A stretch of DNA of 51,501 nt from a virus. Its lineage: Duplodnaviria; Caudoviricetes. Positions 17,805-48,855 of the stretch are shown piece by piece. The position numbers and the translations under genes are program-made. Below the pieces are notes generated by a model that had not been told where the DNA came from, ran no database searches, and saw only the letters and a list, made by a program, of their open reading frames with translations. How positions within the stretch are numbered: position 1 is the first letter of the stretch; each line of letters opens with the position of its first letter. The stretch lies in the IMG/VR virus record IMGVR_UViG_3300037501_000139, positions 1 through 51,501 of that record, one strand, 5' to 3'.

Positions 17805-18344
17805 ATGACTCAGCCTACACAAACGTTAAACCAGTTCGGACAGAAGCCCCTCAAGGGAACAGTCGCGGCCATACCTACGCCGACCACGTTGTCGGTGCAG
17901 GTGTCCCCGAGTTCCTCGGAGACGATTTACGCCGGTGACATGGTCAGGTTGGTCGGGGGAACGTCGCCGACGATACTCGTTGACCTGTGCACCGTCGTGA
18001 GCGATCAGATGATCGGGTTCGTTATCCGTAACCCGAAGAAAGCGAGCTACGTCGCAGGCGACGCACTCGAGATCGCGATGGAGAACAGCGTTATTCTGCT
18101 CGAGGCATACGGCACCATCAACCGCGGCAACAAGGTTGAGTGGTATCCGACGGGCAAGCAGGTTAAGCAGAACGCCGGTGTTAATTCGGCCGTGGGTACG
18201 GCTCTGGACGTCGCAGCGGCTACGGGTGATCTCATCCGGGTCCTGCTGGCGACAACCGATGCGTACAGCTCAAGCTCATCCAGCTGCTCATCGAGTTCAT
18301 CCAGCTGCAGGTCGAGTTCTTCATCCAGCAGCGCAGGAGCGTAA
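17805..18344 (+). CDS. Capsid decoration/cement protein with a C-terminal poly-Ser tail
   Basis: Synteny between scaffold and major capsid; ends SSSSSSCSSSSSSCRSSSSSSSAGA. Confidence 0.7.
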   Translation: MTQPTQTLNQFGQKPLKGTVAAIPTPTTLSVQVSPSSSETIYAGDMVRLVGGTSPTILVDLCTVVSDQMIGFVIRNPKKASYVAGDALEIAMENSVILLEAYGTINRGNKVEWYPTGKQVKQNAGVNSAVGTALDVAAATGDLIRVLLATTDAYSSSSSSCSSSSSSCRSSSSSSSAGA

Positions 18345-18380
18345 CACAGGAGTAACAGCGTAAACATAAGCGGGGCGCGC

Positions 18381-19454
18381 ATGCTTAAATCACGCGTATT
18401 CAAAAAGGAGACTCTTACCATGGAGACAGTTCAGGAGTTCTTGAAGACAAGGTTCAACAGCCGCAGCCTGCGCGGGCAGACGATGATGAACGCGACGGGC
18501 GATATCGATACCTCGAGTCTGGGATACCAGATCGCGCTCGATACGCTCACGTTCATCAAGAAGCAGATCACCGAGCAGAAGTTCTATCAGGTGGCTCCGG
18601 CGGATTACGTTCCCATTTCGGTCGGGGACGGAGCGTTCAGTCAGAATATCCTCACGAATACGACGATCAACGCGTCTGCTGACTTCGAAGAGGGCATCAT
18701 CAATCAGGGTTCGGCAAACGACAGGCTCGCGACGGCGGACGTCGGGGTGTCGTCAAAGACCATGAAGGTTGCCAATTGGGCCAAGGCGATCGGGTATTCG
18801 ATCTTCGAGATCGAGCAGGCGCTGCAGGCGAACAATTGGGACATCATCGAGTCTAAGCACCGCGCGCGCAAGCAGAATTGGGATCTCGGGATCCAGAAGA
18901 TGGCGTTTCTGGGTTCGATAGGGAATCCCACGGCGTTCCCGGGGCTGCTGACGCAGTCGATCGTGAATTCCGACACCACGACCCTCACCGGCCAGATCAG
19001 CGCATTGAGCGCTGCGGACTTCGCGACATTCATCGCGACGATTCTCGCGGCGTATCAATCGAACTGTGCGTATACAGCGTTTCCGACGCACTTCGTCATC
19101 GCGCAGGATGACTACGTCGCGCTCGCGACACCGGTGTCATCTACGTATCCGGTGGTCACGAAGATGACCTACCTCAAGGATGCGTTCGAGAAGATCGTCC
19201 CGGGCGGCGTCAAGATTCTGCCGTCTGCGTACGCGATCGGCTCATCCGCGGTGGGCAGCACCATCGGTCATCATCGGTATGCGATGTACCGATACGATGC
19301 CGAGAGCATCCGGATGGACATCCCGGTGGACTATACCGTGACCCAGCCGAATACGCTCAACAACTTCCAGTTCCAAGATGCTGCATACGGGCAGTTCACG
19401 GGAGTTGGCGTGTATCGCGCGCTCGAGTTGTTGTATTTCGATCTCGCATCTTAA
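18381..19454 (+). CDS. Major capsid protein (DUF2184-like, HK97 fold)
   Basis: IGYSIFEIEQA, IQKMAFLG..PGLL, GQFTGVGVYR; size and synteny; exact start uncertain. Confidence 0.85.
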   Translation: MLKSRVFKKETLTMETVQEFLKTRFNSRSLRGQTMMNATGDIDTSSLGYQIALDTLTFIKKQITEQKFYQVAPADYVPISVGDGAFSQNILTNTTINASADFEEGIINQGSANDRLATADVGVSSKTMKVANWAKAIGYSIFEIEQALQANNWDIIESKHRARKQNWDLGIQKMAFLGSIGNPTAFPGLLTQSIVNSDTTTLTGQISALSAADFATFIATILAAYQSNCAYTAFPTHFVIAQDDYVALATPVSSTYPVVTKMTYLKDAFEKIVPGGVKILPSAYAIGSSAVGSTIGHHRYAMYRYDAESIRMDIPVDYTVTQPNTLNNFQFQDAAYGQFTGVGVYRALELLYFDLAS

Positions 19455-19467
19455 CGAGACCCTTATC

Positions 19468-19497
19468 CGCGGGGCCGGGTAGAGTCCCGGTCCCGCG
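19468..19497 (+). promoter_or_regulatory. GC-rich hairpin after the major capsid gene (mRNA-stabilising or terminator-like, no U tract)
   Basis: 12-bp stem CGCGGGGCCGGG/CCCGGTCCCGCG with a 6-nt loop. Confidence 0.5.
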
Positions 19498-19521
19498 AGG
19501 TGAGGAGAGGGAGAGAGCCAG

Positions 19522-19677
19522 TTGAAGGTATACATTAATGGGAAGGATGGAGAGCCGAGAAGGCTTGTTGAAGTCGAGCTGGTAAAAGAGAACCAGTCAA
19601 CCATTTTCGTAAGATTACCGGATGGCAATGTTATCTCTCGGAAAAAGAAGAGAGACTTGCCCGAGGAGAAAGGTTAA
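19522..19677 (+). CDS. 51-aa hypothetical protein (TTG start, not in the ORF track)
   Basis: MKVYINGKDGEPRRLVEVELVKENQSTIFVRLPDGNVISRKKKRDLPEEKG; purine-rich SD region. Confidence 0.55.
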   Translation: MKVYINGKDGEPRRLVEVELVKENQSTIFVRLPDGNVISRKKKRDLPEEKG

Positions 19678-19678
19678 G

Positions 19679-19879
19679 ATGGAGATATACAACAAAGGCA
19701 GCCGCGATATCATCATCGCGCGCAAGGATGTCATTTCGGGGATCCCGGAGACGATGGACAAAGAGCGCGCGCATATCACGCCGGACATGGTGTGTGAGGT
19801 GAGCGACGCGACAGGAGAGGATTTAATCCGTCGGTATCCGAAGGAGATATTCCGGTGGGGGAAACAACCGGCCGCATAA
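19679..19879 (+). CDS. Hypothetical head-region protein
   Basis: MEIYNKGS start; synteny. Confidence 0.55.
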   Translation: MEIYNKGSRDIIIARKDVISGIPETMDKERAHITPDMVCEVSDATGEDLIRRYPKEIFRWGKQPAA

Positions 19880-19892
19880 CGAGGTATGAGAG

Positions 19893-20345
19893 ATGTCTTG
19901 GAGTTTACCGACAGTGTCGGATTTCAAGGCATACTTCGCCCGGGACTTCAATTTTGCGACGGTTCAAAATGAGCCCCTGAACGACGAGTATGTCCTCGAT
20001 TCCGATATAACGAAAGCCATCACAGAGGCATCCATCAATTTCAATTCGGAGTTGTATGGAGAGGATGCCCTTGTGACAGCGGTGTTCATGTACTTGGTCG
20101 CGTTTCATCTGGTTGTCAATATCCAGAACTCGGCCAAGGGTATTGCTTCGCAGTCGAAGTTCCCTATCAGCGCCTCGTCAGTCGGAGGCGTATCAGTCAA
20201 TTTCCAGATCCCTACAAGATTTACGGACGACGCGTATATATGCCAGTTCACACAGAACGGGTACGGGATGAAGTACCTCTCGTTGGCTCTGCCGTATCTG
20301 GTGGGTAACGTTACGCTCATCGAGGGGACAACGACATGGCAATGA
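19893..20345 (+). CDS. Head-tail adaptor (DUF4054-like)
   Basis: FKAYFARDF, YLVAFHL, SASSVGGVSV, FTQNGYGMKY. Confidence 0.8.
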   Translation: MSWSLPTVSDFKAYFARDFNFATVQNEPLNDEYVLDSDITKAITEASINFNSELYGEDALVTAVFMYLVAFHLVVNIQNSAKGIASQSKFPISASSVGGVSVNFQIPTRFTDDAYICQFTQNGYGMKYLSLALPYLVGNVTLIEGTTTWQ

Positions 20346-20884
20346 AGATTACCCGCATCCCGGGCGGGGTTATAAAGATGGATCTCGAGAAACTGACTAT
20401 GATCGAGAGAGCGTTGAAGAGTAACTTCATCACCGAGGTTGGTGTGTTGGGGAATAAGACTAGCCGTTCGACTGCGGGTGCGGTGATGAAGGCTGGTGGG
20501 CACAAAAAAACGAAGCAGCCGGCTGATATGACGAACGCGGAGATCGGGCTGGTGCATGAGAAAGGATCGTTGTCGCGCAACATTCCGCGCAGATCGTTTC
20601 TGCTCATGCCGCTGATACAAAAGGGCCCGGCGCTTATGCGCGTGCGGCATACGTTGTGGAACAAGTTCCTCGCGGGTGATCAGTCGAAGGGCAGCTTGCG
20701 CGCGGCGTATCGCGACCTCGGTATATTCGCGGAGAACATTGTGCAGAAAGCCTTTGCATCGGGTGGGTTCGGGAAATGGCCGAAGCTCGCGCCGCAGACA
20801 ATACGGCGCAAGAAGTCGTCAGGGATATTGATTGACACGGCGCAGTTGCGCAGGTCGATAGATTCTCGGGTGGTTGAGAGATGA
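20336..20884 (+). CDS. Neck / virion morphogenesis protein
   Basis: AEIGLVHEKG, IPRRSFL, LAPQTIRRK...LIDTAQLRRSI. Confidence 0.8.
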   Translation: MAMKITRIPGGVIKMDLEKLTMIERALKSNFITEVGVLGNKTSRSTAGAVMKAGGHKKTKQPADMTNAEIGLVHEKGSLSRNIPRRSFLLMPLIQKGPALMRVRHTLWNKFLAGDQSKGSLRAAYRDLGIFAENIVQKAFASGGFGKWPKLAPQTIRRKKSSGILIDTAQLRRSIDSRVVER

Positions 20885-21291
20885 TGCCGGATAAGCCAAA
20901 GATTTCAAGCGCAAAGGATCGCAAGATGAGTATGGTCCCTACAGGATTGCCGGACGTATCAGGGGCAGTACAGTCGTTCTTGCAGCCAGCGGTTATCGGA
21001 GTCGTTACCAAGAAGCAGGTGTCAGGGTACACGCAGGAGGATGTTGAGTGGATATACACTCAGGCGGTCAGACAGGCGTTTACGGCGCAGCAGCTGCTCA
21101 TCCGGCCGGAAGGCGAGCGCTCGTGGAAGTGGTTCACGCTGCACACGCTGCCGGAGGTATGTCTGCACACGGATGACCTCATTATCATCCATAACGTCCG
21201 GATGCGGATCATGGAGGTGCTCGGGTATGGCGAGTACGGGTTTAACGAGTACCATGCGATAGAAGATTACGTCACGAGGGTTGAGGAATGA
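20881..21291 (+). CDS. Putative head-closure protein
   Basis: QLLIRPEGERSW motif; synteny. Confidence 0.6.
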   Translation: MMPDKPKISSAKDRKMSMVPTGLPDVSGAVQSFLQPAVIGVVTKKQVSGYTQEDVEWIYTQAVRQAFTAQQLLIRPEGERSWKWFTLHTLPEVCLHTDDLIIIHNVRMRIMEVLGYGEYGFNEYHAIEDYVTRVEE

Positions 21292-21872
21292 GCATTGCAG
21301 TTGATCATCATGCGGGTACGATATTCGAGGTCATTCGACAGATACTCATACATGCAATGGATCTCGATGAAGAGCGCGTCAACATCGCGAGGCAGAAATT
21401 CAAGATTCCGCCGGATGAACATTTGTTCATTGTCATAGATTGTTTACCTGCGCGCACCATTAGCAGCCGCGCGCGGTATGAGATAAACCCGGCGAGTGGG
21501 GATTATGAGGAGATTCAGGATTTGAACCAGTACGACCCGATAACGATCGGCGTGTTCTCACAGAACCTCGAGGCGCTGCAACGTAAGGAAGAAGTCGTGA
21601 TGGCATTGTCGTCACACTACGCGCAGCAGATGCAGGAGAAGCACAGCTTTAAAATATTCCGTAATGCGCCGGTTGAAGACATGACAGCGCTCGAGGGTGC
21701 GGCGATGTTGTATCGATACGACATTCCGGTGGTGTTGCACACGTGGATTCATAAAGTTACGAAGGTAGATTTCTTTGATGCATTTTCAACGAAGGTCAGT
21801 GTTAATGATGGGCTGCCGTTAATGACAGAGGAATTCGATCAGCCGTTATCAAGCAGTTCGAGTGCAGCATAA
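21288..21872 (+). CDS. Putative tail terminator / neck protein, ending SSSSSAA
   Basis: Position directly before the sheath gene. Confidence 0.6.
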   Translation: MSIAVDHHAGTIFEVIRQILIHAMDLDEERVNIARQKFKIPPDEHLFIVIDCLPARTISSRARYEINPASGDYEEIQDLNQYDPITIGVFSQNLEALQRKEEVVMALSSHYAQQMQEKHSFKIFRNAPVEDMTALEGAAMLYRYDIPVVLHTWIHKVTKVDFFDAFSTKVSVNDGLPLMTEEFDQPLSSSSSAA

Positions 21873-21884
21873 AAGGAGGAACGC

Positions 21885-23003
21885 ATGTTAGAGCTTACGA
21901 ACGTAATTAATATCTCGGTGACCGAGTCCCCGATCGGGTTAGGGGAGTATAACGTCAACAACGTTGCGTTGTTCACGTCAGATGCGTTTTTGTCGAATCC
22001 CGACGGTGATGATTATCGTGTTTACGTTTCTGCTGCGGCCGTGGGTGACGATTTCGGAACGGGGACGGAGACGTATGATCAGGCGGTGGCGTTGTTCAGC
22101 CAGAACCCGAATATCCTCGCAGGCGGAGGAAATCTGATCATTTTTCCGTTCTCGGGAGGAGAGACTCTCGAGGAAGCGATCGCGCGGACGAAAGACATGA
22201 TCTTCTACTGCGGCATCATTTCGACGTCTTACGGGTCGAATGCAACGTGGGAAGATCTCGCAGACGCCGTGCAGGCGTATGGGAACAAGATCCTGTTCCT
22301 TCCGTCAAATACCGCCGGGGATATCGCGGGGGTATTCACAAATATCAAAGACGCGATCTGCTCACGCACCCGGTGTCTGTATTATTCCACGAGCGCGCTC
22401 GATGCCCGGCTCTTCGCTGCGGCGTATGCGGGGAGAAGCATGTCGGTCAATTTCGATGGGTCGAATACCTGCATTACCATGAACCTCAAACAGTTGGCCA
22501 CGATCACGCCGGACGACGGCGTTTCGCAGAACGTATGGGCGGCCATGGAGGAAGCAGGCGTCGACGGGTACGTCAGCTACGCTGGCGTTCCGGCGGTCGT
22601 GTCGAACGGGGCGAACAGGTATTTCGATGAGGTGTTCAATCTTGTCTGGTTCGTCAGCGACTTGAAGGTCGCGGGGTTCAACGCTCTGGCGCGGGTATCG
22701 AACAAGATTCCGCAGACCGAGCCGGGCATGAGCCTGCTCAAGAACGCGTACCGGCAGGTGTGCGAGGCCGCGGTCAATAACGCTTATGTAGCGCCGGGAC
22801 AGTGGACGTCGCCGGAGTGGTTCGGGAAACAGGACGAGATGAACAACAACATCCTCGAGAGGGGATATTATATCTACAGCCAGCCGGTCAACTTGCAGTC
22901 AGCGGCTGACCGAGCGGATCGTAAGGCGCCCCTCATCCAGATAGCCGTAAAAGAGGCAGGGGCTATCCATTCGAGCAACGTGCTCGTGAATATCAACCAA
23001 TAA
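21885..23003 (+). CDS. Tail sheath protein (DUF3383-like, compact)
   Basis: NVINISV, LFSQNP, ITMNLKQL, KIPQTEPG, QSAADRADRKAP, GAIHS. Confidence 0.88.
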   Translation: MLELTNVINISVTESPIGLGEYNVNNVALFTSDAFLSNPDGDDYRVYVSAAAVGDDFGTGTETYDQAVALFSQNPNILAGGGNLIIFPFSGGETLEEAIARTKDMIFYCGIISTSYGSNATWEDLADAVQAYGNKILFLPSNTAGDIAGVFTNIKDAICSRTRCLYYSTSALDARLFAAAYAGRSMSVNFDGSNTCITMNLKQLATITPDDGVSQNVWAAMEEAGVDGYVSYAGVPAVVSNGANRYFDEVFNLVWFVSDLKVAGFNALARVSNKIPQTEPGMSLLKNAYRQVCEAAVNNAYVAPGQWTSPEWFGKQDEMNNNILERGYYIYSQPVNLQSAADRADRKAPLIQIAVKEAGAIHSSNVLVNINQ

Positions 23004-23013
23004 GGGAGGGGAC

Positions 23014-23469: not shown

Positions 23470-23470
23470 G

Positions 23471-23902: not shown

Positions 23903-24066
23903 AAGAGGATGAAGCGATCATGGTTGCGTTGAGGTTATCGAAGGCAGGATATGGGAGACCGGATGAGGTTCTCAAGATGCGGACGGACTTGGTGATGGCG
24001 GCGGTGCATTATGAGATATTCCTAAAAGAGTACGAGCGCGCGTTCTGGGAGATGAATAAGAAATGA
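23826..24066 (+). CDS. -1 frameshift extension of the tail assembly chaperone (G-T type)
   Basis: In-phase C CCT TTT (23827), T TTT TTG (23830) and G GGA AAG (23869); -1 frame open to TGA 24064-24066, overlapping the tape measure ATG. Confidence 0.7.
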
Positions 24067-27984: not shown

Positions 27985-28340
27985 TAACGCGCGCGTTGGA
28001 TGTTGATCACGACTGGACGTTTGGTATCGGGAAGAATAATTATTTGACAGAACAAAAGGCAATCGTGCAGGATATTAACACGCGGTTGCTTTCGTTTTTT
28101 AGGGACTGCTTCTTCGACATGGATGCCGGGATTGATTGGTTCCGGCTGCTGGGGACGAAATCCACAGAGCAGGAGATTATATTAAGCTGCAGAGGCGTCA
28201 TATTGCAGTCGTTCGGTGTCGTGCGCGTCAATAGCATATCGTCGTCGGTTTCGGGGAGAAGGATTTATCTCACGTATAACATAGATACCATTTACACGAC
28301 GCAGTTCTCGCAGGCGTTGGAGGTTATGCCACATGCCTAA
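27981..28340 (+). CDS. Baseplate wedge / sheath-initiator-like protein
   Basis: RALDVDHDWTFGIG, CFFDMDAGIDW. Confidence 0.75.
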   Translation: MITRALDVDHDWTFGIGKNNYLTEQKAIVQDINTRLLSFFRDCFFDMDAGIDWFRLLGTKSTEQEIILSCRGVILQSFGVVRVNSISSSVSGRRIYLTYNIDTIYTTQFSQALEVMPHA

Positions 28341-32238: not shown

Positions 32239-32239
32239 C

Positions 32240-38888: not shown

Positions 38889-39819
38889 AGAGGATCGTAT
38901 ACGCAGGGGGCGGTGGCTGGAAGTTCCGGACGCAGAGTGGGAGCAGCAGCTGGCGTCGGTTAATCAGGCGCTTGACGGGTATCTGGGAAACGACGCATGG
39001 GCGCCGAAGATCAAAAAGGATGTTCTCGTTCTATTGATTTCGCATCCGGCCGGGAGGTGCTACCTCACAGGATCCCTGCGGACGCACAAGGATCTCGGTT
39101 ACTGGATCGCGGTGGCGTACGACAATTATTTCGATCCGGCTTTGACGAAGTACGACTGGGATGGATTGATGCCGGCAAAGGATCAGATGGACATGATTGA
39201 CAGTTTCTTCATGGGGCATCATCAGACGTGGGGTGGCGTGTCGTACCCGTTCATGTGGCTCCTGCGCATTGCGGCCGGGTTCGGGCTAAACTTCAAATAT
39301 GTGTACTGCATCAACGGTGATTGCATCATCGAGAAACCGGAAGGGTTCCCGATGATGATCGAGACCCTCGGCGATGCGGACATCATGTCATCCGGTCCGG
39401 CGCTCGAGCGCGAGATCGGGACGGCGGGGTTGCTCATGCGGTCGCAAGCATTTTTCGGGATCGCCAAGCATATGGTCGACCACGTTGTACCATTTGAGGA
39501 ATACGAGAAATCGACGCAGGATTTCGGGAACACCGAGGGTCGGCTTGCGGTTGCGGTGCGGGATCTCGGGTTGAAGCAGGTTATCGTTGAGCCGGGGTAT
39601 AACGAACAGCTGCATATTCCGGGGCACGGGTTCTGGTGGAAGACGATAGGATTTCGACATATCCATGGAGAACACAATTACGCATATAGATATCATGCGA
39701 TACCACCCGAGTCGAAGTATTTTGACCCAAGGTTTATGGGTGACGAATATAATCAAATTCTGAGATATCACGAAACAAAAGATAAATCCATCCTCGAGGC
39801 ATGGTGGGAGAAAGGTTAA
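38875..39819 (+). CDS. Putative GT-A-like transferase, paralog 2
   Basis: Shares AYDN.F, KYVY..NGDC..EKPEGF, IGFR and KYFDP with the upstream gene. Confidence 0.5.
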   Translation: MGVTREDRIRRGRWLEVPDAEWEQQLASVNQALDGYLGNDAWAPKIKKDVLVLLISHPAGRCYLTGSLRTHKDLGYWIAVAYDNYFDPALTKYDWDGLMPAKDQMDMIDSFFMGHHQTWGGVSYPFMWLLRIAAGFGLNFKYVYCINGDCIIEKPEGFPMMIETLGDADIMSSGPALEREIGTAGLLMRSQAFFGIAKHMVDHVVPFEEYEKSTQDFGNTEGRLAVAVRDLGLKQVIVEPGYNEQLHIPGHGFWWKTIGFRHIHGEHNYAYRYHAIPPESKYFDPRFMGDEYNQILRYHETKDKSILEAWWEKG

Positions 39820-39820
39820 C

Positions 39821-42800
39821 ATGGCTCAATTCGGATATACGACGGTAGGGGCGAACGAGAACACAGCGCAGGGGTATTATATTCAAGGATGTTTGTTCGA
39901 TGGAGCCGCCGGTGTCGCGGAGTCGATCAGCATTTACCTGAAACAATCGGGCGCCTACACGCCGTATATCAAGTGTGCCATTTATGATGCGAGCTTGAAT
40001 AAAATCGCCGAGAGTGAGGAGTGGCAGCTCACAGCATCGTGGGACGGGTGGAAGACTTTCAACCTTACAACGAATCCGACGATTTCAGATCAGCAGTATT
40101 ATTTATGTGTATGGGGTTATGAGCCGTACATTTTCATGTACGACACCGGGGTGACGAACCAGCGTGGAAAAGTACAGTATACATACGGCGCGTGGCCAGA
40201 TCCGATATCTGGGTGGTCTGGGCTGTATAGTTACAAGATGTCGATGTACTGCACATACACAGAGAGCACCTCGACTCCAGATTATACGCAGGACGCGGAC
40301 TGTGATGCAGCATTCATATTCGCAGAGGGATCTGGTACCTCGGTTGCGGACGTTTCGGACAACGGCAACGAAGGAACGTTTGCGTCATCCGGGCATCCGG
40401 CATGGAGTGCGGATGTACCGAGTTTCGCGGGGCAGGGTGAAGCAGTAGGATCCGTTGAGTTCGATGGGTCAGACGTTGTCGACATGATTGATCTTGGAAC
40501 GCAGGAGATCGCGACGGAAAGCGAACCGTTGACGTTTGTCTGCTGGGCAAAGCTCGATACGCTGTTGGGAACAGCACAGTCAAGAGATAGGAGATTATTC
40601 TCGAGGTCAGTTGATGGCGAAGGTATTTGTTTATATTTTTCGGGTGACGATGGGGTGACTCCTGCGAACAACCGCGTGTATTTCGAGGTGCCGGGCGATA
40701 CGTATCTTCTGGCAAATATTGCTCCGGGGAGCGACCTTGCGATTAACACGTGGACACATTTCGCGGTGACGTGGGATGGGACGACGAGTTCGAGCGGAAT
40801 TAAAATTTATATAAACTCTGTTCTATATCCCAAGAACCACGGAGAAGAAGGATCGGGGCTGTGGGACAACGCGGGTTTACACACATTCATTGGGAATCTT
40901 GATGATGGTTCCGCGACGCTCGATGGCAAGATTACGCAGGTTGCGTTTTTCGATCGCGTGTTGAGCGCGGGAGAAATCGGAGATATTTTCAATTACGGGT
41001 TGCAGGGGCTGGAGCCGTCATACAGCTCAAGCTCATCTTGTTGTTCGTCTTCAAGCTCTTCCTGCCGGTCGAGTAGTTCATCGAGTATCTCATCATCTTC
41101 CAGCAGCTGGTCTTTTACCTCTTCGTCAAGTTCTTGTTCATCATCTTCATGTCGTTCAAGCAGCTCAAGTTCCTCCTGCCGTTCGTCAAGCAGCTCCTGC
41201 CGATCATCGTCATCGAGCTCATGCCGATCATCATCAAGCTCTTCGGCATACCCAGAGTCTGCGACGGGAACGGCATATTACGTTGACGCAGCGCGCCCCA
41301 ACGATTCCGGAGACGGGTTGTCATGGGCGACGGCGAAGAAATACATCCAGTCTGGCGTATCGGCAATGGGTGGCGGTGATCGGCTGTATATCAAAAACGG
41401 GACGTACACCAACGCGCAGGATTTCATCGACGGAGGGCTCTATTCATCGCAGTACGGAAACCTCAAGAACGGAACAGCGAGCCAGTACACGCGCATTTAC
41501 GCCGAGACCGATTTCGGCGTAACGATCAATATCCCAGCAGACAACGCTCGGCATCCGTGCGCGATATGGAACCGATCGTATGTCGAGATCCGCGGGATCC
41601 GGTTCATGGGTGGATCATCGCCGAAGGTTTACCTCGCGGGGACGACGAACCATTGTAAGATCATCCGGTGTTGCAACAACGGCGCCGGAGGGAATACTTC
41701 GCATTTCTTGTCGACGGGAACGTACAATCTGTTTGAGGAGTGCTACGCGTGGGGGTACGGCCGGTATCCGTTCGGGACGTTCGGTGCGGCGCAGTATAAC
41801 GTATTCCGAAGATGTCTTGTGCGGTGGGATGGGTCTAACACATCCGAACCGCAGGCATGTTTTGCAAATTATGACACAGATTCTGTCGCGTTCCAGAATT
41901 GTATCGCGATAAATGGGGAGGACAACAACGAGATGCCGGATACGACGTATGATGGCATCAAGGGATTCTTTACGCCGAACGGGTGTTCACATACGTATTT
42001 TGAAGGATGCATCGCTCTCGATTTCGAAGGGGCCGGGTATTGGCTCGAGGGGACGCCGATAGTCGATGTTAGCTTGAAGAACTGCATCGCGTGGGATGTG
42101 CATAAGGTCAGCTATACAGTGGGATATGCCGCATATCTTCTTTATTGCCGGTATGATGCAACGGGCGGTCCTGTGGTGGTTGACCATTGCACCTTTGGTG
42201 TCAGCGATCTCGGCGAGGGGATCACGGCATACGAGGCGCTGCCAAACCGGCAGATAAAGAATTCAATTATTTACGGTGTGTACTTGAATTCCGGATTCTA
42301 CGCAGTCACGGGCCCGTGGGCTTATGAGGATTATAACTGCTATTACAACAACACGGGAAACAGAAATTTCAACGGGACTCTTGGTTCGCATTCAAAGACG
42401 ACGATTAACCCGTTGACAAATTCGCTGCGGTACTTGCCGCGAATCGAGAGCGGATCATCACTTGATGGGCAGGCGTCAGACGGCGGGGATATCGGCGCTA
42501 CGGTGGTCAACAAGATTGGGCAGTCTGGCAAGCTCTGGGGCGAGTCGGGGTGGAATGTGGATACGGGGGAGAGTTTGTGGCCGTTCCCGAACGAGGCGCA
42601 GATTAAATCAGATATCTCATCGTATGACGACCGCGGGTTCTGCGCCGCGGGGGAGACGTTGACGCATTATATCTGGAATTATCTTGGCAACGGTGGGTTC
42701 CCGGGCACGAGTACGTCGTCATCGAGTTCATCGAGCTGCCGGTCATCATCAAGCAGCAGTTGTTCATCGAGCAGTTGCCGGTCGTCATCAAGCAGCTGCT

Positions 42801-43624
42801 GTTCATCGTCGAGTTCGTCATGGAGTTATACGTCGTCGTCTTCGAGCAGCCGGAGCTCGTCATCAAGCAGCTGCCGGTCATCCTCGTCGAGCTCCTGTCG
42901 GTCATCGAGCAGCTCATGTTCATCGAGCAGCTGCCGGTCGTCGTCGAGCAGCTGCCGGTCTTCCAGCAGTTCATCGAGCTCTTCTTGCCGATCATCGTCG
43001 TCCAGTTGCTCATCGTCTTCGAGCTCAATATCGAGCAAGTCGAGCTCATCCTCAAGCTGCCGGAGCTCAAGCTCGTCTTCCAGCTGCCGGTCATCCAGCA
43101 GTTCGTCGAGCACGAACCTGTCGAGCTCTTCGTCGTCATCCAGCTCTTGCCGGTCCTCGAGCAGCTCATCCAGCTCCTGCCGGTCGTCAAGCAGCTCATC
43201 GAGTTCGTACAGCGGATCCGTTAATTACAGCCGGGACGACGTTGTGGCGATCCCTGCCACAGACGCGGACCTGCCGACGCCGTTTACGGCGCAGAATTAT
43301 GTCGATGTGGCGGCAGTGGACAGCGTGTTCGTAACGCAGGACGCGATAGACCAGTATGCGATTAAGTTGTTCAAGAAGAAGTTCGCGTCCGTATCGGAGT
43401 TTCAGGCTACGTGGACGGGGAAATCTACCCGGGCGCCGTCGTTATCAGCGGTAAGTTTAAGCGCGTATAACCACACCACGGGCCTGTGGGTACAGCTGGC
43501 GGCGAATTCGACAGCAGGGGCGAACGTGCCGTTTACGTTGTCCGGATCCGTAGCTGTGGGGTATGCGGACTATTTCGACGCTGGCGGGTGGGTGTCATTC
43601 ATGGTGAGTCAGAGGGCGGTATGA
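39821..43624 (+). CDS. Large virion appendage protein: LamG-like + right-handed beta-helix + two poly-Ser tracts
   Basis: WTHFAVTWDG...FDRVLS (LamG); YYVD...GDGLSWATAK...GDRLYIKNGTY and repeated F..C.A (beta-helix); Ser tracts at about 41018-41245 and 42709-43213. Confidence 0.75.
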   Translation: MAQFGYTTVGANENTAQGYYIQGCLFDGAAGVAESISIYLKQSGAYTPYIKCAIYDASLNKIAESEEWQLTASWDGWKTFNLTTNPTISDQQYYLCVWGYEPYIFMYDTGVTNQRGKVQYTYGAWPDPISGWSGLYSYKMSMYCTYTESTSTPDYTQDADCDAAFIFAEGSGTSVADVSDNGNEGTFASSGHPAWSADVPSFAGQGEAVGSVEFDGSDVVDMIDLGTQEIATESEPLTFVCWAKLDTLLGTAQSRDRRLFSRSVDGEGICLYFSGDDGVTPANNRVYFEVPGDTYLLANIAPGSDLAINTWTHFAVTWDGTTSSSGIKIYINSVLYPKNHGEEGSGLWDNAGLHTFIGNLDDGSATLDGKITQVAFFDRVLSAGEIGDIFNYGLQGLEPSYSSSSSCCSSSSSSCRSSSSSSISSSSSSWSFTSSSSSCSSSSCRSSSSSSSCRSSSSSCRSSSSSSCRSSSSSSAYPESATGTAYYVDAARPNDSGDGLSWATAKKYIQSGVSAMGGGDRLYIKNGTYTNAQDFIDGGLYSSQYGNLKNGTASQYTRIYAETDFGVTINIPADNARHPCAIWNRSYVEIRGIRFMGGSSPKVYLAGTTNHCKIIRCCNNGAGGNTSHFLSTGTYNLFEECYAWGYGRYPFGTFGAAQYNVFRRCLVRWDGSNTSEPQACFANYDTDSVAFQNCIAINGEDNNEMPDTTYDGIKGFFTPNGCSHTYFEGCIALDFEGAGYWLEGTPIVDVSLKNCIAWDVHKVSYTVGYAAYLLYCRYDATGGPVVVDHCTFGVSDLGEGITAYEALPNRQIKNSIIYGVYLNSGFYAVTGPWAYEDYNCYYNNTGNRNFNGTLGSHSKTTINPLTNSLRYLPRIESGSSLDGQASDGGDIGATVVNKIGQSGKLWGESGWNVDTGESLWPFPNEAQIKSDISSYDDRGFCAAGETLTHYIWNYLGNGGFPGTSTSSSSSSSCRSSSSSSCSSSSCRSSSSSCCSSSSSSWSYTSSSSSSRSSSSSSCRSSSSSSCRSSSSSCSSSSCRSSSSSCRSSSSSSSSSCRSSSSSCSSSSSSISSKSSSSSSCRSSSSSSSCRSSSSSSSTNLSSSSSSSSSCRSSSSSSSSCRSSSSSSSSYSGSVNYSRDDVVAIPATDADLPTPFTAQNYVDVAAVDSVFVTQDAIDQYAIKLFKKKFASVSEFQATWTGKSTRAPSLSAVSLSAYNHTTGLWVQLAANSTAGANVPFTLSGSVAVGYADYFDAGGWVSFMVSQRAV

Positions 43625-44148
43625 TCATCACCTTAAGCACAGATTATTTCGTCGCATCCGGGCATACGCCGGTCGTCGCGACGTTGTCGACAGATTATTT
43701 CAGCGCAGACGTGTACGCGTCGTCATCGAGCTCGTGCAGGAGCTCCTCGTCATGTTCTTCGTCGTCCTCGTGTTGCAGCTCTTCCTGTTCGTCCTGCCGG
43801 TCATCTTCCTCATCCAGCTCCTGCAGAAGCTCGTCGTCATCATCATGCCGGTCAAGCAGCAGTTCATCGAGCTGTCGATCGTCGTCATCTTCATCGTCGA
43901 GGTCAATGTCCTCAAGCAGCTCGCGCAGCGTGTCGAGTTCGTCATCGAGCCGGAGCTTCAGCTCATCGTCATCGAGCAAATCATCTTCAAGCTCGTCATC
44001 GAGCTGTGTGTCAAGTTCATCGAGCTGCAGATCGAGTTCATTGAGTTCTTCATCATCGAGTTCTATGAGTTTTTCGAGCCTGACATTGTACGATACTAGG
44101 GATTCGTTTATAACTCCGGTAACGGTTTATAATTCATATTTACATTAG
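43621..44148 (+). CDS. Small protein made mostly of poly-Ser (about 120 of 175 aa)
   Basis: ATGA coupling; N-terminal TLSTDYF twice, then SSSSC(R)SSSS repeats. Confidence 0.65.
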   Translation: MIITLSTDYFVASGHTPVVATLSTDYFSADVYASSSSSCRSSSSCSSSSSCCSSSCSSCRSSSSSSSCRSSSSSSCRSSSSSSSCRSSSSSSSRSMSSSSSRSVSSSSSSRSFSSSSSSKSSSSSSSSCVSSSSSCRSSSLSSSSSSSMSFSSLTLYDTRDSFITPVTVYNSYLH

Positions 44149-44157
44149 GAGGACGGC

Positions 44158-46131
44158 ATGGCGGCGAATAGAACGAAAACGATAGAGTACATGCTCCCGA
44201 TGCTATCCACCGCAGCGACATATCTGGTTGAAGGTACGTCGTATAACGACAGCGCCGATACGACCATTTATATCCCCGAAACAACGAGCCGCACGTTTAA
44301 GTCGGTGTTCCTAGAGCTGGTTATACATGATGCGACGACAACGTATACCTACAATTTATCCGCGTGGGGAATACGCGGTTCTTGCGATGCCGGTTCTACG
44401 TGGACTTCGGCTACAGTAGCGTCTGGATATGCGACGAGCGGAGAAAACATGTCGCATGTTTTTGTCGTCGATATGACAGCCGAATTTGTAGCTCGGTTTT
44501 CAGGAGCGTCCGATACGTTTAGATACGGATTTTACATGGATTATTCCGGGGTATGCAACGTCGCGAATGTATCGGCTAAATTATATATCACGTATGAGTA
44601 CGATGATACCGCGCATGCAACAAGAGTTAAGACTGTCCGCATCCCGATAGAGTCATTGAACGGGAGGTTGTCGAATAGCGCGCAGGAAGTCAAGCAGGCA
44701 TCGACGGCAGCGAATCAGTTGCCCGCGTTATTACACGCTTCGACTCCGTTCTTGCCGGAGAATTCGGTAACAATTCGCCAGGCATTTTGTGAGTTGTGGA
44801 CAAAAACGACTCCGTCTGCTACCACAGATTCGCAGTTGTATTTAAAAGTTGATTCGGGAGGTTCGGAAACGACGTTCGGGCTAGTCGAGGATGGCGGGTC
44901 TTCTCCTATCACGATTAGGTATCTGTACAATGTAACTTCTACCGACTGGACATCGGCGCATGCCTTATATGCCCGCCACAACAATGCCAGCGAGAGCCAT
45001 TATCTGCATCTCGGCGGGTGGTTGACCGTAACGTACGAGTATAATCACACCAACTCATCCACGATACTCAACAGCGTCGTCTGGGGTATGGGAGATGCTG
45101 TGTTGAACGTGCGTACGTCAGGAGACGTGGACAAGGTTTCGCTCGAGCGGTGGATCGAGGAACCGGCAACGATTACATTAGTACAGAGCGGAGTTTTCGT
45201 TACGGCGGAAACGGGGACTACGTCAGGCACATTGAGTTTCGGTGTCGGTAGTCAAACGGTTACTGGATATACGCCGACGGCAGGCGCGACGGATGCGGGA
45301 TTCTTGTCCTTTATGCACAGAATAGATGCCGGTGGTCACCGTGGAGCTGGCGTAACTTTAGCCCGTGGGAAAAACACATTCACGTGTCAGTTCTACGCCA
45401 GCAATAACGACTATGTCGGAAACGTGTCGGCGTTGATGATTTTGAATTACACGTCCGGTAAACATGCGAATGGCGATGGGGTGCATAATCATTCGGTTTA
45501 CTGGGGGATGTATGCCAATAACGCGGCGGCTACCGCGAACGCTGTGTTGACTACGATAACGACGCCATCTATCCTGGAAAGCAATTATTACCTGCAATGC
45601 GTAGCTCCGGTTCTCTATTTCAGCGGTATACAAGGATCCGTTGTGTACTTTTTTGTGGAGTGCGAATTGCAGTCCGGTGAAGGCGAGGGGGCTATCGGCG
45701 CAGGCTGGTTTCCGTTTTATTCAGCTGTTAGCGTGAGCGGAAACGAGCGAAAGCCGAACATTTCTTTTACGTGTGGTGGAAAATTCTTCCGCAGGTATCC
45801 GAATACGCCGGATACGAAATATATGGAATTAGAAACGACGAGGTCGTGGAGATACTACGGGGTTACCGCTCAATTTGCTTTTGGGTTGTGGGTTACTTAT
45901 CATTCAATAACCTTTACCGTAAGCGGTACCGTTAGCGGATACACAGGAGATGGGTCAGGGCTGACGGTTAAGTTGTATAGAACGGACAACGGTGCATATC
46001 TGGGCAGCGCGACAACCGCGGCTGGCGGTGGATATACGTTTACTTGGTACGATAATACCATTGATGTTCTCGCTGAATGCAGGCAGGATGCGACGCACGT
46101 GGGACGCAGTGACAACGGAGTTGGTACGTAA
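44158..46131 (+). CDS. Beta-rich putative virion protein with an Ig-like C-terminus
   Basis: AGGAGG SD; two LYITYEYD/LTVTYEYN-like repeats; TVSGTVSG...TVKLYR...GGYTF. Confidence 0.6.
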   Translation: MAANRTKTIEYMLPMLSTAATYLVEGTSYNDSADTTIYIPETTSRTFKSVFLELVIHDATTTYTYNLSAWGIRGSCDAGSTWTSATVASGYATSGENMSHVFVVDMTAEFVARFSGASDTFRYGFYMDYSGVCNVANVSAKLYITYEYDDTAHATRVKTVRIPIESLNGRLSNSAQEVKQASTAANQLPALLHASTPFLPENSVTIRQAFCELWTKTTPSATTDSQLYLKVDSGGSETTFGLVEDGGSSPITIRYLYNVTSTDWTSAHALYARHNNASESHYLHLGGWLTVTYEYNHTNSSTILNSVVWGMGDAVLNVRTSGDVDKVSLERWIEEPATITLVQSGVFVTAETGTTSGTLSFGVGSQTVTGYTPTAGATDAGFLSFMHRIDAGGHRGAGVTLARGKNTFTCQFYASNNDYVGNVSALMILNYTSGKHANGDGVHNHSVYWGMYANNAAATANAVLTTITTPSILESNYYLQCVAPVLYFSGIQGSVVYFFVECELQSGEGEGAIGAGWFPFYSAVSVSGNERKPNISFTCGGKFFRRYPNTPDTKYMELETTRSWRYYGVTAQFAFGLWVTYHSITFTVSGTVSGYTGDGSGLTVKLYRTDNGAYLGSATTAAGGGYTFTWYDNTIDVLAECRQDATHVGRSDNGVGT

Positions 46132-48506
46132 TGGCGCATGACATAGTTTTACGTGATAACGGGTCGGGAGCGCTCGATATATCTTTCGGAGCCGCGTCGT
46201 CTTCATCGTCTTCGCGATCATCTTCATCGAGTTCTTGCCGGTCGTCGAGCAGCTCATCCTCGTATAAAACTCCTACCGACTATTCCCAAGACGCAGATTG
46301 TGTCGGGTGCTGGCCGACAGATGGGCTGACGAGCGGGTATGAGATACCTGACCTTTCTGGAAACGGGAATCCCATGGAGGTCGGTGATACCGAGGACACG
46401 GATTTCGTATGGGAAGACACCGGTGGCCCGTCAGGGATTACAAATTATCTTCATTTCCCGGCTGGAAGTAGCGGGTGGTACGGGGTATGGTCGAATGATT
46501 TTGATGGTACCCGGCCGTTTAGCTGGGTCGGCTGGGTGAAGTTTGACACGTGGGAAAACTGGTCGAATCCGTTCTACAAGGGTGATGAATGGTATTGCCA
46601 GTTATCGAATTCCGGCAATACGATTTATATGAAGGTACGTCGTGCCACGACGGATATGTATGTTTCAACATCGACGACGTTTTCTGCTGGAGTTTGGGTG
46701 CATATTGCGATAACCTACGATAATTCAGGCGATTCCGATGGGTTAATCGTATACAAGAATGGTTCGGCATGCAGCGTTTCATCTTCGAGTGATGGTAGCG
46801 GTGACCATGTAACTACGTCGGCAGGGGGACTCGGGGGAGAATCCGACATCGGTTCAGATGATGTGTATGTCGCGGAGATGGCGTATTTTGACAGAGTCCT
46901 GACGCCGACGGAGATAGCGGATATTTACGCAAACGGACTGGGGTATACGCGGACGTCGTCGAGTTCATCATCATCGTGCCGGTCGTCGTCTTCAAGCTGT
47001 TCAAGTAGAAGCTCTTCGTCATCATCAAGCATAAGCAGCAGTTCGTCAAGCTCTGTGTCCTCATCATCCTCGAGCTCCTGTCAATCGAGCTCTTCTTCGT
47101 GCAGCAGCCAGTCTTCATCATCGAGTTCTTCTTGCCGATCATCGAGTTCTTCCTGCTCATCGCGGTCGTCATCTTCGTCAAGCAGTATTTCGAGCTCATC
47201 GAGTTCATGCCGGTCGTCGAGTTCCAGCTGCTCTTCGTGGAGCTCTTCATCATCGAGCAGCATATCGTCATCTTCGTCGTCGTGTAGGAGTTCATCTTCT
47301 TCCTGTTCGTCGCAGTCGTCCTCGTCGTCGTGCAGTGTTTCTTCGTCCTCTTCGAGTTGCCGGTCTTCGAGCTCGTCGTGTTCTTCAAGAAGCAGCTCTT
47401 CCTCAAGCAGCGTTTCATCATCGTCGTCAAGCTGCCGGTCGAGTTCGTCCTCATGTTCGAGCCAGTCGTCTTCTTCTTCGTCGAGTATCAGCAGCAGCTC
47501 GTCGAGTTGCCGATCATCCAGCAGCAGCTGTTCGTCGCAGTCCTCATCGTCTTCCAGCAGCTGCCGGTCATCGTCTTCGAGCTGTTCCAGTTTATCGAGT
47601 TCATCTTCCAGCTCGTGCCGGTCGAGTTCATCGTCCTGCTCATCGCGGAGCTCATCATCGTCATCAAGTGTATCAAGCTCATCGTCATCATGCCAGTCGT
47701 CGAGCAGCTCCTGCTCTTCGCGGAGCTCATCCTCGTCAAGTAGCGTGTCATCATCGAGTTCGTCTTGCCAGTCATCATCGTCATCGTCGTCTTGCAGGAG
47801 TTCATCGTCGTCTTGTTCATCACGGAGTAGCTCTTCGTCATCGAGCGTTTCAAGCTCATCGAGTTCGTGCCGGTCGAGCAGCTCTTCCTGTTCGTCGCGG
47901 AGTTCGAGCTCATCGAGCATATCTTCATCGTCAAGCTCATGCAGGAGCTCATCATCGTCATCGAGCATTTCAAGCTCGTCTTCGAGTTGCAGGTCGTCGA
48001 GCAGCTCTTGCTCTTCGCGTTCAAGTTCATCGAGCTCATCATCGTCATCTATAGCATTCTCATCATCCAGCTCTTCATCCTGTTTGTCGTCGAGCTCTTC
48101 ATCCTGCCGGTCATCGTCAAGCTCATCGAGCGTGTCGAGCAGCTCATCGAGCAGTGTGTCGTCTTCATCTTCGAGCTGCCTGTCGTCAAGCTCATCGAGC
48201 AGTGCTTCTTCGTCGTCATCAAGCAGCAGGAGCTCATCGAGTTCATCAAGCAGCTGCCGAAGCTCATCGTCATCGAGCAGCGTATCGTCTTCATCGTCAA
48301 GCAGATCTTCACACAGTTCAAGTTCATCAAGCTCGTCGAGTTCTTTCGGATCGAGCTCGTCGAGCTCGTCATCGTCGAGCACCTATTTTTTATTTATAGA
48401 GGTATTTCGATCACGGATAAACCCGCAGATGCGCATGAAATCATTCATCTCGCCGGTTATACGCAGGGATTCGATCATCCCTGAATTGGAGGAGGCCCAT
48501 GCCTGA
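46131..48506 (+). CDS. LamG-like protein with a roughly 470-aa periodic poly-Ser/Cys tract
   Basis: WVHIAITYD...YFDRVLTPTEI; tract at about 46955-48380 with a 25-aa unit CRS5CS2(R/Q/W)S7(I/V)S6. Confidence 0.75.
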   Translation: MAHDIVLRDNGSGALDISFGAASSSSSSRSSSSSSCRSSSSSSSYKTPTDYSQDADCVGCWPTDGLTSGYEIPDLSGNGNPMEVGDTEDTDFVWEDTGGPSGITNYLHFPAGSSGWYGVWSNDFDGTRPFSWVGWVKFDTWENWSNPFYKGDEWYCQLSNSGNTIYMKVRRATTDMYVSTSTTFSAGVWVHIAITYDNSGDSDGLIVYKNGSACSVSSSSDGSGDHVTTSAGGLGGESDIGSDDVYVAEMAYFDRVLTPTEIADIYANGLGYTRTSSSSSSSCRSSSSSCSSRSSSSSSSISSSSSSSVSSSSSSSCQSSSSSCSSQSSSSSSSCRSSSSSCSSRSSSSSSSISSSSSSCRSSSSSCSSWSSSSSSSISSSSSSCRSSSSSCSSQSSSSSCSVSSSSSSCRSSSSSCSSRSSSSSSSVSSSSSSCRSSSSSCSSQSSSSSSSISSSSSSCRSSSSSCSSQSSSSSSSCRSSSSSCSSLSSSSSSSCRSSSSSCSSRSSSSSSSVSSSSSSCQSSSSSCSSRSSSSSSSVSSSSSSCQSSSSSSSCRSSSSSCSSRSSSSSSSVSSSSSSCRSSSSSCSSRSSSSSSISSSSSSCRSSSSSSSISSSSSSCRSSSSSCSSRSSSSSSSSSSIAFSSSSSSSCLSSSSSSCRSSSSSSSVSSSSSSSVSSSSSSCLSSSSSSSASSSSSSSRSSSSSSSSCRSSSSSSSVSSSSSSRSSHSSSSSSSSSSFGSSSSSSSSSSTYFLFIEVFRSRINPQMRMKSFISPVIRRDSIIPELEEAHA

Positions 48507-48855
48507 TTTTTGCAGGAATAATTACACCGAGAAGCATTATGTCGATGAGGTGGGTACGGCGATATATATCAATTGCGGGCAGGATGTTTCTGGCGCGGTT
48601 GATTGTTTCGTGTATATGAAACGACCGGACGGGTCAGTCGTCAAGCGGGCAGCGACGCCTGTGGTATTCGAGGGAAGTCTCAATTATGTGAGGATGGTCC
48701 TCGAGAGTGGAGACTTCAATCAGGCGGGCGATTATAGCTGTCAGGTATGGCTAACGCTCGGCACGTGGAATGGAGGAGGCAATGAGTTCATAATAACGGT
48801 AGATGAGCGGATGTCGAGCTCATCCAGCTCATCATCGAGCTCAAGCGGCGCATAG
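48499..48855 (+). CDS. Putative virion beta-sandwich protein ending in S11-GA
   Basis: MKRPDGS, DFNQAGDY pattern resembles BppU-like N-terminal domains. Confidence 0.55.
   Translation: MPDFCRNNYTEKHYVDEVGTAIYINCGQDVSGAVDCFVYMKRPDGSVVKRAATPVVFEGSLNYVRMVLESGDFNQAGDYSCQVWLTLGTWNGGGNEFIITVDERMSSSSSSSSSSSGA

Follow-up and report, generated by a model that had tools for sequence, protein, structure and literature searches.

Virion glycosylation was reportedly described in 2023, by Freeman et al. in Cell Host Microbe, for the mycobacteriophages Che8, Corndog and Myrna; the targets are said to be capsid and tail tube subunits of these actinobacteriophages, with the glycans at the C-termini of these structural subunits. 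Phage virion glycosylation is likewise attributed to mycobacteriophages in a citing sentence of PMC12619734. Here we analyze a 51,501-base stretch of DNA (the window), which is one complete virus record (IMG/VR IMGVR_UViG_3300037501_000139) with every gene on the + strand. Seven predicted virion proteins in the window carry tracts of nearly pure serine, and a cassette of predicted glycosyltransferases (GTs), methyltransferases and sugar-nucleotide enzymes lies within the same late operon. On balance we think it somewhat probable that tracts and cassette form a portable phage module for tagging virion proteins, in which the serines would be O-glycosylated in the cytoplasm and the virion would emerge with a glycan brush.

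Methylated 4-amino-4,6-dideoxyhexoses, the type of sugar that the cassette brings to mind, cap the BclA nap of Bacillus spores. They are found also on the fibrils of Mimivirus, where 2-O-methyl-viosamine is such a sugar, made by way of a dehydratase and an aminotransferase, and the single PBCV-1 polypeptide A064R contains a methyltransferase as well as two GTs (PMC9614988). Serine-rich repeat glycoproteins (SRRPs) of Gram-positive bacteria are primed by GtfA/GtfB and extended by further GTs (PMC6973325). TibC, of the bacterial autotransporter heptosyltransferase (BAHT) family, is a cytoplasmic enzyme of heptosyltransferase fold that hyper-glycosylates serine, and not threonine, in a repetitive surface protein; it has a four-cysteine iron finger (C339, C342, C358 and C370) near the C-terminal end of the catalytic domain (PMC4358343). 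A full-text literature search returned no description of poly-Ser tags on phage structural proteins or of the cassette described below.

A preliminary description of the window had listed seven proteins with serine tracts, and all of them are present where it placed them:

17805–18344, + strand: capsid cement (decoration) protein (Pfam Phage_cement_2, E 1e-6); a conserved N-domain (aa 1–150) is followed by a 22-aa Ser tail (aa 155–176, nt 18267–18332, + strand) that ends AGA-stop
21288–21872, + strand: neck/tail terminator (Pfam Phage_tail_terminator_9), ending SSSSS-AA-stop (nt 21849–21863)
28333–29631, + strand: J-like baseplate wedge protein (phrog_6, E 5.5e-37) with a C-terminal S/C/R tail of 35 aa (aa 396–430, nt 29518–29622, + strand) that ends AG-stop
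39821–43624, + strand: 1267-aa appendage with an N-domain and a LamG domain (Pfam Laminin_G_3, aa 232–386), then poly-Ser (402–475), a beta-helix-like region (476–965), poly-Ser (966–1129) and a C-terminal domain
43621–44148, + strand: 175-aa protein, mostly Ser tracts (aa 34–148), with no family match in Pfam or PHROGs
46131–48506, + strand: 791-aa LamG protein, 55% Ser (Pfam Laminin_G_3 at aa 122–263; tracts at aa 23–44 and 276–750)
48499–48855, + strand: 118-aa protein with a C-terminal S11-GA-stop

The 1267-, 175-, 791- and 118-aa proteins are predicted to be virion proteins from gene position and LamG or beta-helix domains. In the 1267-aa protein poly-Ser joins folded modules (LamG, tract, beta-helix, tract, C-domain); a feature search of the ESM Atlas placed this protein with beta-helix/pectate-lyase clusters at 0.96, which serves as a lead only. 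The cement, terminator, J-like and 118-aa proteins instead carry terminal tails that link nothing, and in all four, 2–3 small residues stand between the last Ser and the stop codon.

Serine tracts occur in 7 of the 56 open reading frames (ORFs), all of them within the late operon. We counted 106 runs of at least five Ser, where the background Ser frequency of 5.85% predicts 0.010 and where 200 shuffles of the whole proteome gave a mean of 0.17 and a maximum of two. Runs of at least four Ser were found in none of the 20 early and replication ORFs and in none of the cassette enzymes, and the capsid and tube proteins themselves lack a Ser tag. Repeated DNA does not underlie the tracts: TCT, TCC, TCA, TCG, AGT and AGC all encode Ser in them, at frequencies near those found elsewhere (698 tract codons versus 964 outside), and Tandem Repeats Finder detected only short, imperfect arrays. 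No single nucleotide change leads from a TCN to an AGY codon except by way of another residue, and the mixture of both types within tracts therefore indicates selection for serine itself. Among the 834 tract residues in the window, 136 are not Ser (C 59, R 45, V 9, I 8, L 4, Q 3 and T 1, among others), and the interrupter CR appears 41 times.

Inside these tracts, four of the five alternative frames are almost free of stops, and an antisense ORF of 433 aa covers 47081–48382. Both features would fit the explanation that the tracts are an artefact, arising from a low-complexity assembly error or from a region where another frame or strand is really read, which we regard as very improbable. Its candidate frames, a +2 frame rich in Leu, Ile, Gln and Glu and an antisense frame rich in Asp, Glu and Leu, are just as hard to credit. 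The openness of the +1 and −1 frames is uninformative because poly-Ser coding can hold no stops there. In the +2 frame, 5 stops are present where 39.3 ± 4.7 are expected when the Ser codons are shuffled. This shortfall follows from avoidance of T-ending Ser codons before AGY, a junction seen 3 times against ~31 expected in the window tracts (e.g. 46956–48380). The avoidance is lineage-specific, being present also in L013, L016, L018 and L023 (loci from other phages, as described below) and absent from L015, L017, L019 and L020/L021. It accompanies a general shortage of TAG in the genome, where T|AG codon junctions outside the tracts occur at a ratio of 0.47, and within the tracts it exceeds that shortage. 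Elsewhere, the 3655 tract codons of 20 tagged ORFs from other phages show 380 stops in the +2 frame, 546 in −0 and 234 in −2. The tracts recur in 29 independent contigs with GC contents of 37–60%, and in the long proteins they share a frame with the folded domains that precede and follow them. The tracts are read as serine. An overlapping product from another frame was considered and rejected, as stop-free frames do not generalize to the tracts of other phages.

The second component of the locus is a run of co-oriented, closely packed enzyme genes (31255–39819) within the late structural operon, between the tail fiber and appendage genes:

31255–32238, + strand: RmlB-like (dTDP-glucose-4,6-dehydratase-like) nucleoside diphosphate (NDP)-hexose 4,6-dehydratase (TIGR01181, E 1e-81, below the equivalog cut-off; Pfam Epimerase and GDP_Man_Dehyd)
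32240–33301, + strand: DegT/DnrJ/EryC1 sugar aminotransferase of the pyridoxal phosphate type (Pfam, E 1.3e-67); its nearest equivalogs, PseC, LegC and WecE, are every one below cut-off
33274–33885, + strand: HNH/NUMOD3 homing endonuclease (Pfam and PHROGs), between the DegT and fusion enzyme genes and overlapping the DegT 3' end
33882–36626, + strand: 914-aa three-domain fusion enzyme, with a GT9-like GT-B domain (aa 63–366), a class I methyltransferase (aa ~373–550) and a GT4-type GT-B domain (aa 585–914)
36623–37219, + strand: Methyltransf_24 methyltransferase MT1 (Pfam, E 1.6e-14)
37219–37830, + strand: Methyltransf_24 methyltransferase MT2 (Pfam, E 1e-15)
37827–38888, + strand: 353-aa GT-A-fold glycosyltransferase (model pLDDT 81; Foldseek match 8zwp, E 4.8e-6)
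38875–39819, + strand: 314-aa GT-A-fold paralog, 28% identical to the 353-aa protein (alignment A2)

Orientation and packing are as given in the preliminary description, and profile and fold comparisons bear out its enzyme list, from which the HNH/NUMOD3 gene was missing. This gene has no counterpart in 13 related cassette loci from IMG/VR and is therefore best viewed as a recent insertion into the cassette and not as part of the system.

By fold or profile, the cassette contains four GT domains and three methyltransferase domains. The 914-aa enzyme was modeled with an 11-sequence alignment (pLDDT, the predicted local distance difference test, of 73). With VIA, aa 63–366 match GT9 3tov (Z 19.6, root-mean-square deviation 3.9, 267 residues aligned) and heptosyltransferase II 1psw (Z 17.7, root-mean-square deviation 3.8, 255 aligned), and aa 585–914 match BshA 6n1x (Z 25.1). 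Heptosyltransferase II is also the sole NCBIfam match of the GT9-like domain (E 0.0078). The middle part was assigned by profile against the PDB to O-methyltransferase 3ntv (E 1.4e-5, positions 412–497). Four cysteines of the GT9-like domain (C315, C321, C324 and C329) are invariant and a fifth (C342) is present in at least 90% of sequences; they lie in low-confidence loops (309–344) near the end of the domain.

The 353- and 314-aa paralogs have no family or sequence match in Pfam, NCBIfam or the PDB (A2 profile). The 353-aa model gives 187 Foldseek matches at E ≤ 0.001, the top rows of which are all GT-A enzymes (B3GalT5, B3GNT2, ColGalT1 and SpsA), and VIA scores of Z 11–14 over 165–210 residues (8snc 14.2, 8zwp 13.8, SpsA 13.6), in a list that also holds PBCV-1 A064R domain 1 and Mimivirus R699. 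The two proteins share 11 invariant columns, including Y84, D85, N155 and D157, and we putatively assign Y84-D85 and N155-x-D157 to the DxD motif. No cassette protein has a membrane-like segment (maximum KD19 hydropathy ≤ 1.55), and the enzymes are predicted to be soluble.

To compare loci with and without the cassette, we read the association from fusion-enzyme loci to tracts, with cassette-free relatives as controls. Fusion enzyme homologs are present at 13 loci in IMG/VR (50–63% identity, GC 38–60%), and a same-strand poly-Ser ORF accompanies them in 13 of 13. Among 185,579 GTDB species genomes, the sole match is a 67-kb contig of a metagenome-assembled genome (MAG), where the same cassette is accompanied by a Ser-rich protein of 912 aa. 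A scan of metagenome contigs added 46 loci, to give 60 in total and 49 after removal of redundancy. Where the flank is sufficient (at least 4 kb upstream or at least 8 kb downstream of the fusion enzyme), 23 of 25 non-redundant loci hold a tract, scored as a + strand ORF with 30 or more Ser lying in runs of five or longer, and 6 of 24 shorter loci do. The controls comprised 7 loci around cassette-free capsid relatives and 80 around terminase relatives (1.14 Mb), and none of these 87 contains such a tract on either strand. By a looser criterion, five of the 80 terminase loci show 8–21 Ser antisense to the genes. The fusion enzyme, DegT, MT1 and the GT-A paralogs are absent from all 80, among which a dehydratase-like match occurs in three and an MT2-like match in one. 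Independent distribution of tails and GT cluster, set beforehand as the observation that would count against the preliminary description, is not what we find.

The phages that share this module are otherwise dissimilar. For 12 of the 13 IMG/VR loci, no structural gene in common with the window is detectable; grouping by shared non-cassette genes gives about seven lineages, and the capsid proteins fall into separate PHROGs (264, 334 and 9953). Gene order is nevertheless maintained: tagged protein(s), (dehydratase), DegT, fusion enzyme, methyltransferase(s), GT-A paralogs, tagged protein. From the last GT-A gene to the tagged gene downstream, the distance is often less than 30 nt, as it is in the window (39819/39821). 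Across the 13 loci, DegT is encoded in 13, MT1 in 9, MT2 in 5 and the dehydratase in 4, from which it follows that the host presumably provides the dehydratase step elsewhere. Tracts and cassette are inherited and transferred together, and this joint travel in unrelated phages argues that the particle is probably sugar-coated.

Cassette size also varies. L027 (7667–17667) has ~10 kb of extra enzyme-sized ORFs between the fusion enzyme and a GT-A paralog, and L011 has an extra 3.8 kb between the fusion enzyme and MT1. The enlarged L027 cassette suggests that glycan complexity differs between lineages. In L040, an ORF at 17786–22864 runs past the end of the locus with 949 Ser in runs of at least five; the contig is 215 kb long and carries the same cassette, and the system is therefore also present in a jumbo-sized phage or a large element.

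These comparisons bear directly on the alternative that the tracts stay unmodified and act as entropic bristles or as flexible, hydrophilic spacers, that the cassette acts on the host envelope (lipopolysaccharide or capsule) or on phage DNA, and that their co-occurrence reflects ecology or hitch-hiking. GT9 and GT4 enzymes classically act on lipopolysaccharide. Hitch-hiking, however, would hardly produce fixed synteny in about seven unrelated lineages and a tract in 23 of 25 loci with the cassette when none of 87 controls has one. Nor would spacers account for the four of the seven tagged proteins whose C-terminal tails connect nothing, and action on the envelope or DNA sits poorly with cassette proteins that lack membrane segments, with the absence of base-hypermodification genes from the rest of the genome, and with a position inside the structural operon and not in a moron or early position. 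We consider this alternative distinctly unlikely. Two narrower versions of it were rejected. For DNA hypermodification, no hydroxymethylase or related gene was found in 1–17.8 kb, and for membrane-bound O-antigen modification, no cassette protein has a hydrophobic segment.

Several observations nevertheless weigh against glycosylation of the tracts. Its support consists of co-occurrence together with family and fold assignments. Carbohydrases of Saccharophagus and Cellvibrio have poly-Ser linkers between their domains, for which the relevant passages of the source give no known glycosylation (PMC2386152), and the tracts of the 1267-aa protein sit between domains in the same linker-like manner. 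The profile of the GT9-like domain (A3), run against all PDB sequences, found as its best match an unrelated protein at E 2.6, and TibC was not matched. A nucleotidyltransferase or N-acyltransferase was not found in the window, and the sugar pathway is for that reason incomplete without the host. Finally, two long cassette loci lack a tract, although they are not clean counter-examples: L027 ends inside its enlarged cassette and L035 covers only the upstream side.

If the tracts are tags that can be grafted onto different proteins, as had been proposed, then their positions should be free to change between related phages, and this is what we observe. One gene has to be added here:

29633–30364, + strand: DUF2612 baseplate protein (Pfam DUF2612), untagged in the window; its start is at 29633 and not at an overlapping TTG at 29474

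A sister phage, G001, has a capsid protein 67% identical to that of the window, the cassette, and S-C-R-S tails, which it carries on two cement paralogs and on its DUF2612 baseplate protein. Its J-like protein is untailed, the reverse of the J/DUF2612 arrangement in the window. The G001 DUF2612 protein (L022:7247–7987) has a 47-aa Ser tail and matches the window protein by BLASTP at E 1e-52; the two align end to end, and the G001 tail starts where the window protein ends. The cement paralogs of G001 (L010) are in tandem on the reverse strand, at 1454–2074 and 2135–2656 of the reverse-complemented record; they are 47 and 38% identical to the single cement protein of the window, and both are S-C-R-S-tailed. 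Tags thus move between neighboring virion proteins.

Relatives without the cassette show what takes the place of a tail. No tracts were found in more distant relatives (capsid identity 51–61%, L002–L008), and neither the fusion enzyme nor DegT was found in any of five searched relatives (capsid identity 51–57%, two complete genomes). In cassette-free relatives, the 150-residue N-domain of the cement protein is followed by a folded domain of 100–270 residues; in four terminase-relative loci, the protein stops 5 residues past the N-domain. The cement Ser tail of the window accordingly occupies the place of an outward domain, which relatives carry there as a fold. The Ser end of the terminator is missing from all six homologs looked at in relatives.

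The composition of the tracts differs between lineages. Tagged ORFs of other loci (21 ORFs with 3880 tract residues) have Ser runs with a median length of 8; their most frequent interrupters are R (271) and C (127), followed by L, K, N and I, and Thr occurs once. Only R interrupts the runs in L018, L020/L021 and L023, C and R occur separately in L012, and N and L are used in the MAG contig. S-C-R-S is therefore one dialect among several: the form given in the preliminary description holds within the window and does not extend to the system as a whole. The invariant feature is short pure-Ser runs that are nearly devoid of Thr, Pro, Ala and Gly, each of which is one mutation from Ser. Among the tagged proteins of other loci are LamG proteins resembling those of the window, a family of 180 residues whose gene comes straight after that for the capsid protein, and several with no assigned family.

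Some tagged proteins have short peptides beyond the tract. The 175- and 791-aa proteins of the window end in short non-Ser peptides that share R-D-S-(F/I)-I-x-P. Short W-x-D-R-x-E repeats directly follow long Ser tracts in L012 (18309–19091), L014 (10369–12858), L016 (18068–20428) and L023 (17521–18399), with three or four copies in L014. Such terminal peptides may serve in anchoring or recognition.

We propose the following mechanism. Late in infection, structural proteins (cement, terminator, J-like and 118-aa) would be made with codon-scrambled poly-Ser tails, and the LamG/beta-helix appendages with long inter-domain or terminal poly-Ser tracts. Before or during assembly, soluble cytoplasmic enzymes of the cassette would build O-linked glycans on the tract serines. 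The RmlB-like dehydratase and DegT would convert host NDP-glucose to NDP-4-amino-4,6-dideoxyhexose. Glycans would be started on Ser by either the GT9-like domain, with its heptosyltransferase-like fold, or the GT4 domain of the 914-aa enzyme, and extended by the remaining GT-B domain and the two GT-A paralogs, while methylation or capping of the sugars would fall to three methyltransferases, the fused one and the two encoded separately. A hydrophilic glycan brush would result, covering the surface of the capsid, the neck, the rim of the baseplate and the distal appendages. The description of this glycan as a methylated amino-deoxy-sugar is suggested by the enzyme families. Other acceptor residues were considered and rejected as general chemistry: S-glycosylation of Cys, as the Cys-free lineages (L018, L020/L021, L023 and L024) keep the cassette, including the GT-A paralogs, and glycosylation of Arg, as the nearly Arg-free L024 does the same.

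The same co-occurrence would be expected if tracts and cassette were linked by a different chemistry, with Ser priming or anchoring a long polysaccharide or phospho-glycan polymer, or if only some of the tagged proteins were substrates. The much larger cassettes of some lineages (~10 kb extra in L027, 3.8 kb in L011) would suit a polymer, and Mimivirus fibrils bear polysaccharides of 25–100 kDa on a protein backbone (PMC9614988). Set against this, Pfam and NCBIfam searches found no polymerase-, flippase- or phosphotransferase-like protein in the window, and the GT set is small, with four domains, and soluble. We regard this variant as unlikely.

Returning to O-glycosylation of the tracts, we give an even chance to the broader proposal of a widespread, horizontally mobile "glyco-tagging" system, in which a homopolymeric Ser tag and a cassette built around the tri-functional enzyme, with its BAHT-like Ser-directed domain, would produce methylated amino-deoxy-sugar glycans and a mucin-like brush. 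The tag in such a system consists of ~8-Ser runs split by single R, C, CR, N or L, and it would be graftable onto any outward-facing virion protein. Wherever sequence analysis can probe the preliminary interpretation, it lends support: tails shift between J and DUF2612, and in cement homologs from cassette-free phages a folded domain or an early end takes the position of the tail.

The tagged genes and cassette are embedded in the rest of the window as follows:

1–17.8 kb, + strand: early region, with replication and packaging genes for an SNF2 helicase, Pam3 gp33/gp34-like proteins, a primase-like protein, a ParB-N6/N4 DNA methylase, terminase, portal and a Mu-F-like protein
from 17.8 kb, + strand: myovirus late operon of E217/Pam3 type, with cement, major capsid, neck proteins, terminator, DUF3383 sheath, tube, chaperone, tape measure, a Dit-like protein, plug, hub, a phage N-terminal-domain protein (Pfam PF18352), W-like and J-like wedge proteins, DUF2612 and tail fiber (Pfam, PHROGs)
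30377–31255, + strand: tail fiber protein (PHROG tail fiber families)
44158–46131, + strand: 657-aa protein without Ser tracts, between tagged genes, with no assigned function

Megablast of the window gave no match, and no close cultured relative was found; a tblastn search of a phage collection with the capsid protein had Bdellovibrio phage phi1422 (43%) as its sole match. Three HNH-type elements are present in the 51.5 kb. The first ORF of the record (1–324) combines HNH_3 and AP2 and is listed with 51198–51500. An endolysin ORF with a TTG start (50271–51161) contains both HNH_3 (aa 81–123) and Peptidase_M15 (aa 210–293), and it may represent a homing endonuclease fused to, or mis-joined with, a lysin. 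The early region also has a gene for a GroES-like Cpn10 (7321–7590) and a fusion of a ParB N-terminal domain with an N6/N4 DNA methylase (10796–12067); a GroES-like gene likewise lies upstream of the cassette in L011 (6845–7336).

If the tracts are glycosylated, many environmental phages would coat capsid, neck, baseplate and fibers with a glycan brush of their own making, using a short peptide tag that can be transferred together with a compact set of enzymes. A mucin-like brush, a surface type so far known only from cells and giant viruses, would then extend to phages and would affect our view of the phage surface: how stable particles are as colloids, how they adhere to matrices, and what shields them from enzymes, grazers or antibodies. 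A large class of ignored low-complexity phage ORFs would be explained, to the benefit of annotation, and the tag with its enzymes, being genetically encodable, would be a tool for site-directed O-glycosylation inside the bacterial cytoplasm.

How, then, does this locus compare with the systems that resemble it? Polyserine linkers are alike in placing long poly-Ser between folded domains, as in the 1267-aa protein. As far as the relevant passages of PMC2386152 extend, they differ in that they belong to secreted bacterial enzymes with no dedicated GT cassette and that terminal, non-linking tails are not a feature.

The SRRPs, and the Ser-Asp repeat proteins modified by SdgA/SdgB, also have GT genes beside genes for Ser-rich surface proteins and rely on cytoplasmic glycosylation by GT4-type GT-B enzymes (PMC6973325 in part). 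The GT4 domain of the fusion enzyme (aa 585–914) superposes on GtfA 4pqg (Z 21.2), SdgB (Z 21.8–23.1; 7vfm 23.1) and Gtf3 3rhz (Z 19.8), with scores that are not above those for unrelated GT4 enzymes. A DUF1975 or GtfB-like partner was not found in the window, and no SecA2, SecY2 or Asp protein family was found among the 59 ORFs scanned with Pfam. In contrast to the SRRPs as that source presents them, the window has tracts of pure Ser runs and not S-x repeats, the bearer is a virus particle, and there is no accessory Sec system.

For priming, the nearest mechanistic analogue would be the BAHT family (TibC, AAH). The GT9-like domain has the same GT-B, heptosyltransferase-like fold, and its cysteine cluster (C315/C321/C324/C329, with C342) lies at a comparable end, in loops modeled with low confidence. 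The near-absence of Thr from the window tracts (1 of 834) is consistent with Ser specificity, and only consistent with it. TibC is not among the fold matches of the 914-aa model, whose lists are filled by GT4 matches to aa 585–914. Because no sequence similarity was found and no superposition was obtained, we speak of resemblance to BAHT and not of membership. Compared with the enzymes described in the part of PMC4358343 that was available, the domain in the window is fused to a methyltransferase and a GT4 domain, lacks sequence similarity, and would have homopolymeric Ser as its acceptor in place of a beta-helix repeat.

Giant viruses provide a precedent for the enzymes. They make and attach their own glycans, as is predicted here, with a three-domain GT/GT/methyltransferase protein and a dehydratase plus aminotransferase, and have a glycosylated surface, likewise predicted here. 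Their hosts are eukaryotic, A064R has the order GT-A, new GT, methyltransferase where the window enzyme has GT9, methyltransferase, GT4, and PBCV-1 glycans are N-linked on the capsid protein, with no poly-Ser acceptor in the sections of PMC9614988 that describe them. Because of the Mimivirus and A064R parallels, the enzyme logic of the cassette is precedented in giant viruses and not in the phage literature searched.

The last comparison is with the mycobacteriophages. There, GTs encoded by the phage modify its own particle, as they would here, where four GT domains are encoded between the tail fiber and the appendages, and in both cases the acceptor would be C-terminal, as are four of the Ser tracts in the window. 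The window differs in its homopolymeric Ser tracts, which are found on decoration, neck, baseplate and appendage proteins, and in its conserved mobile cassette, which combines sugar-nucleotide tailoring with three methyltransferase domains.

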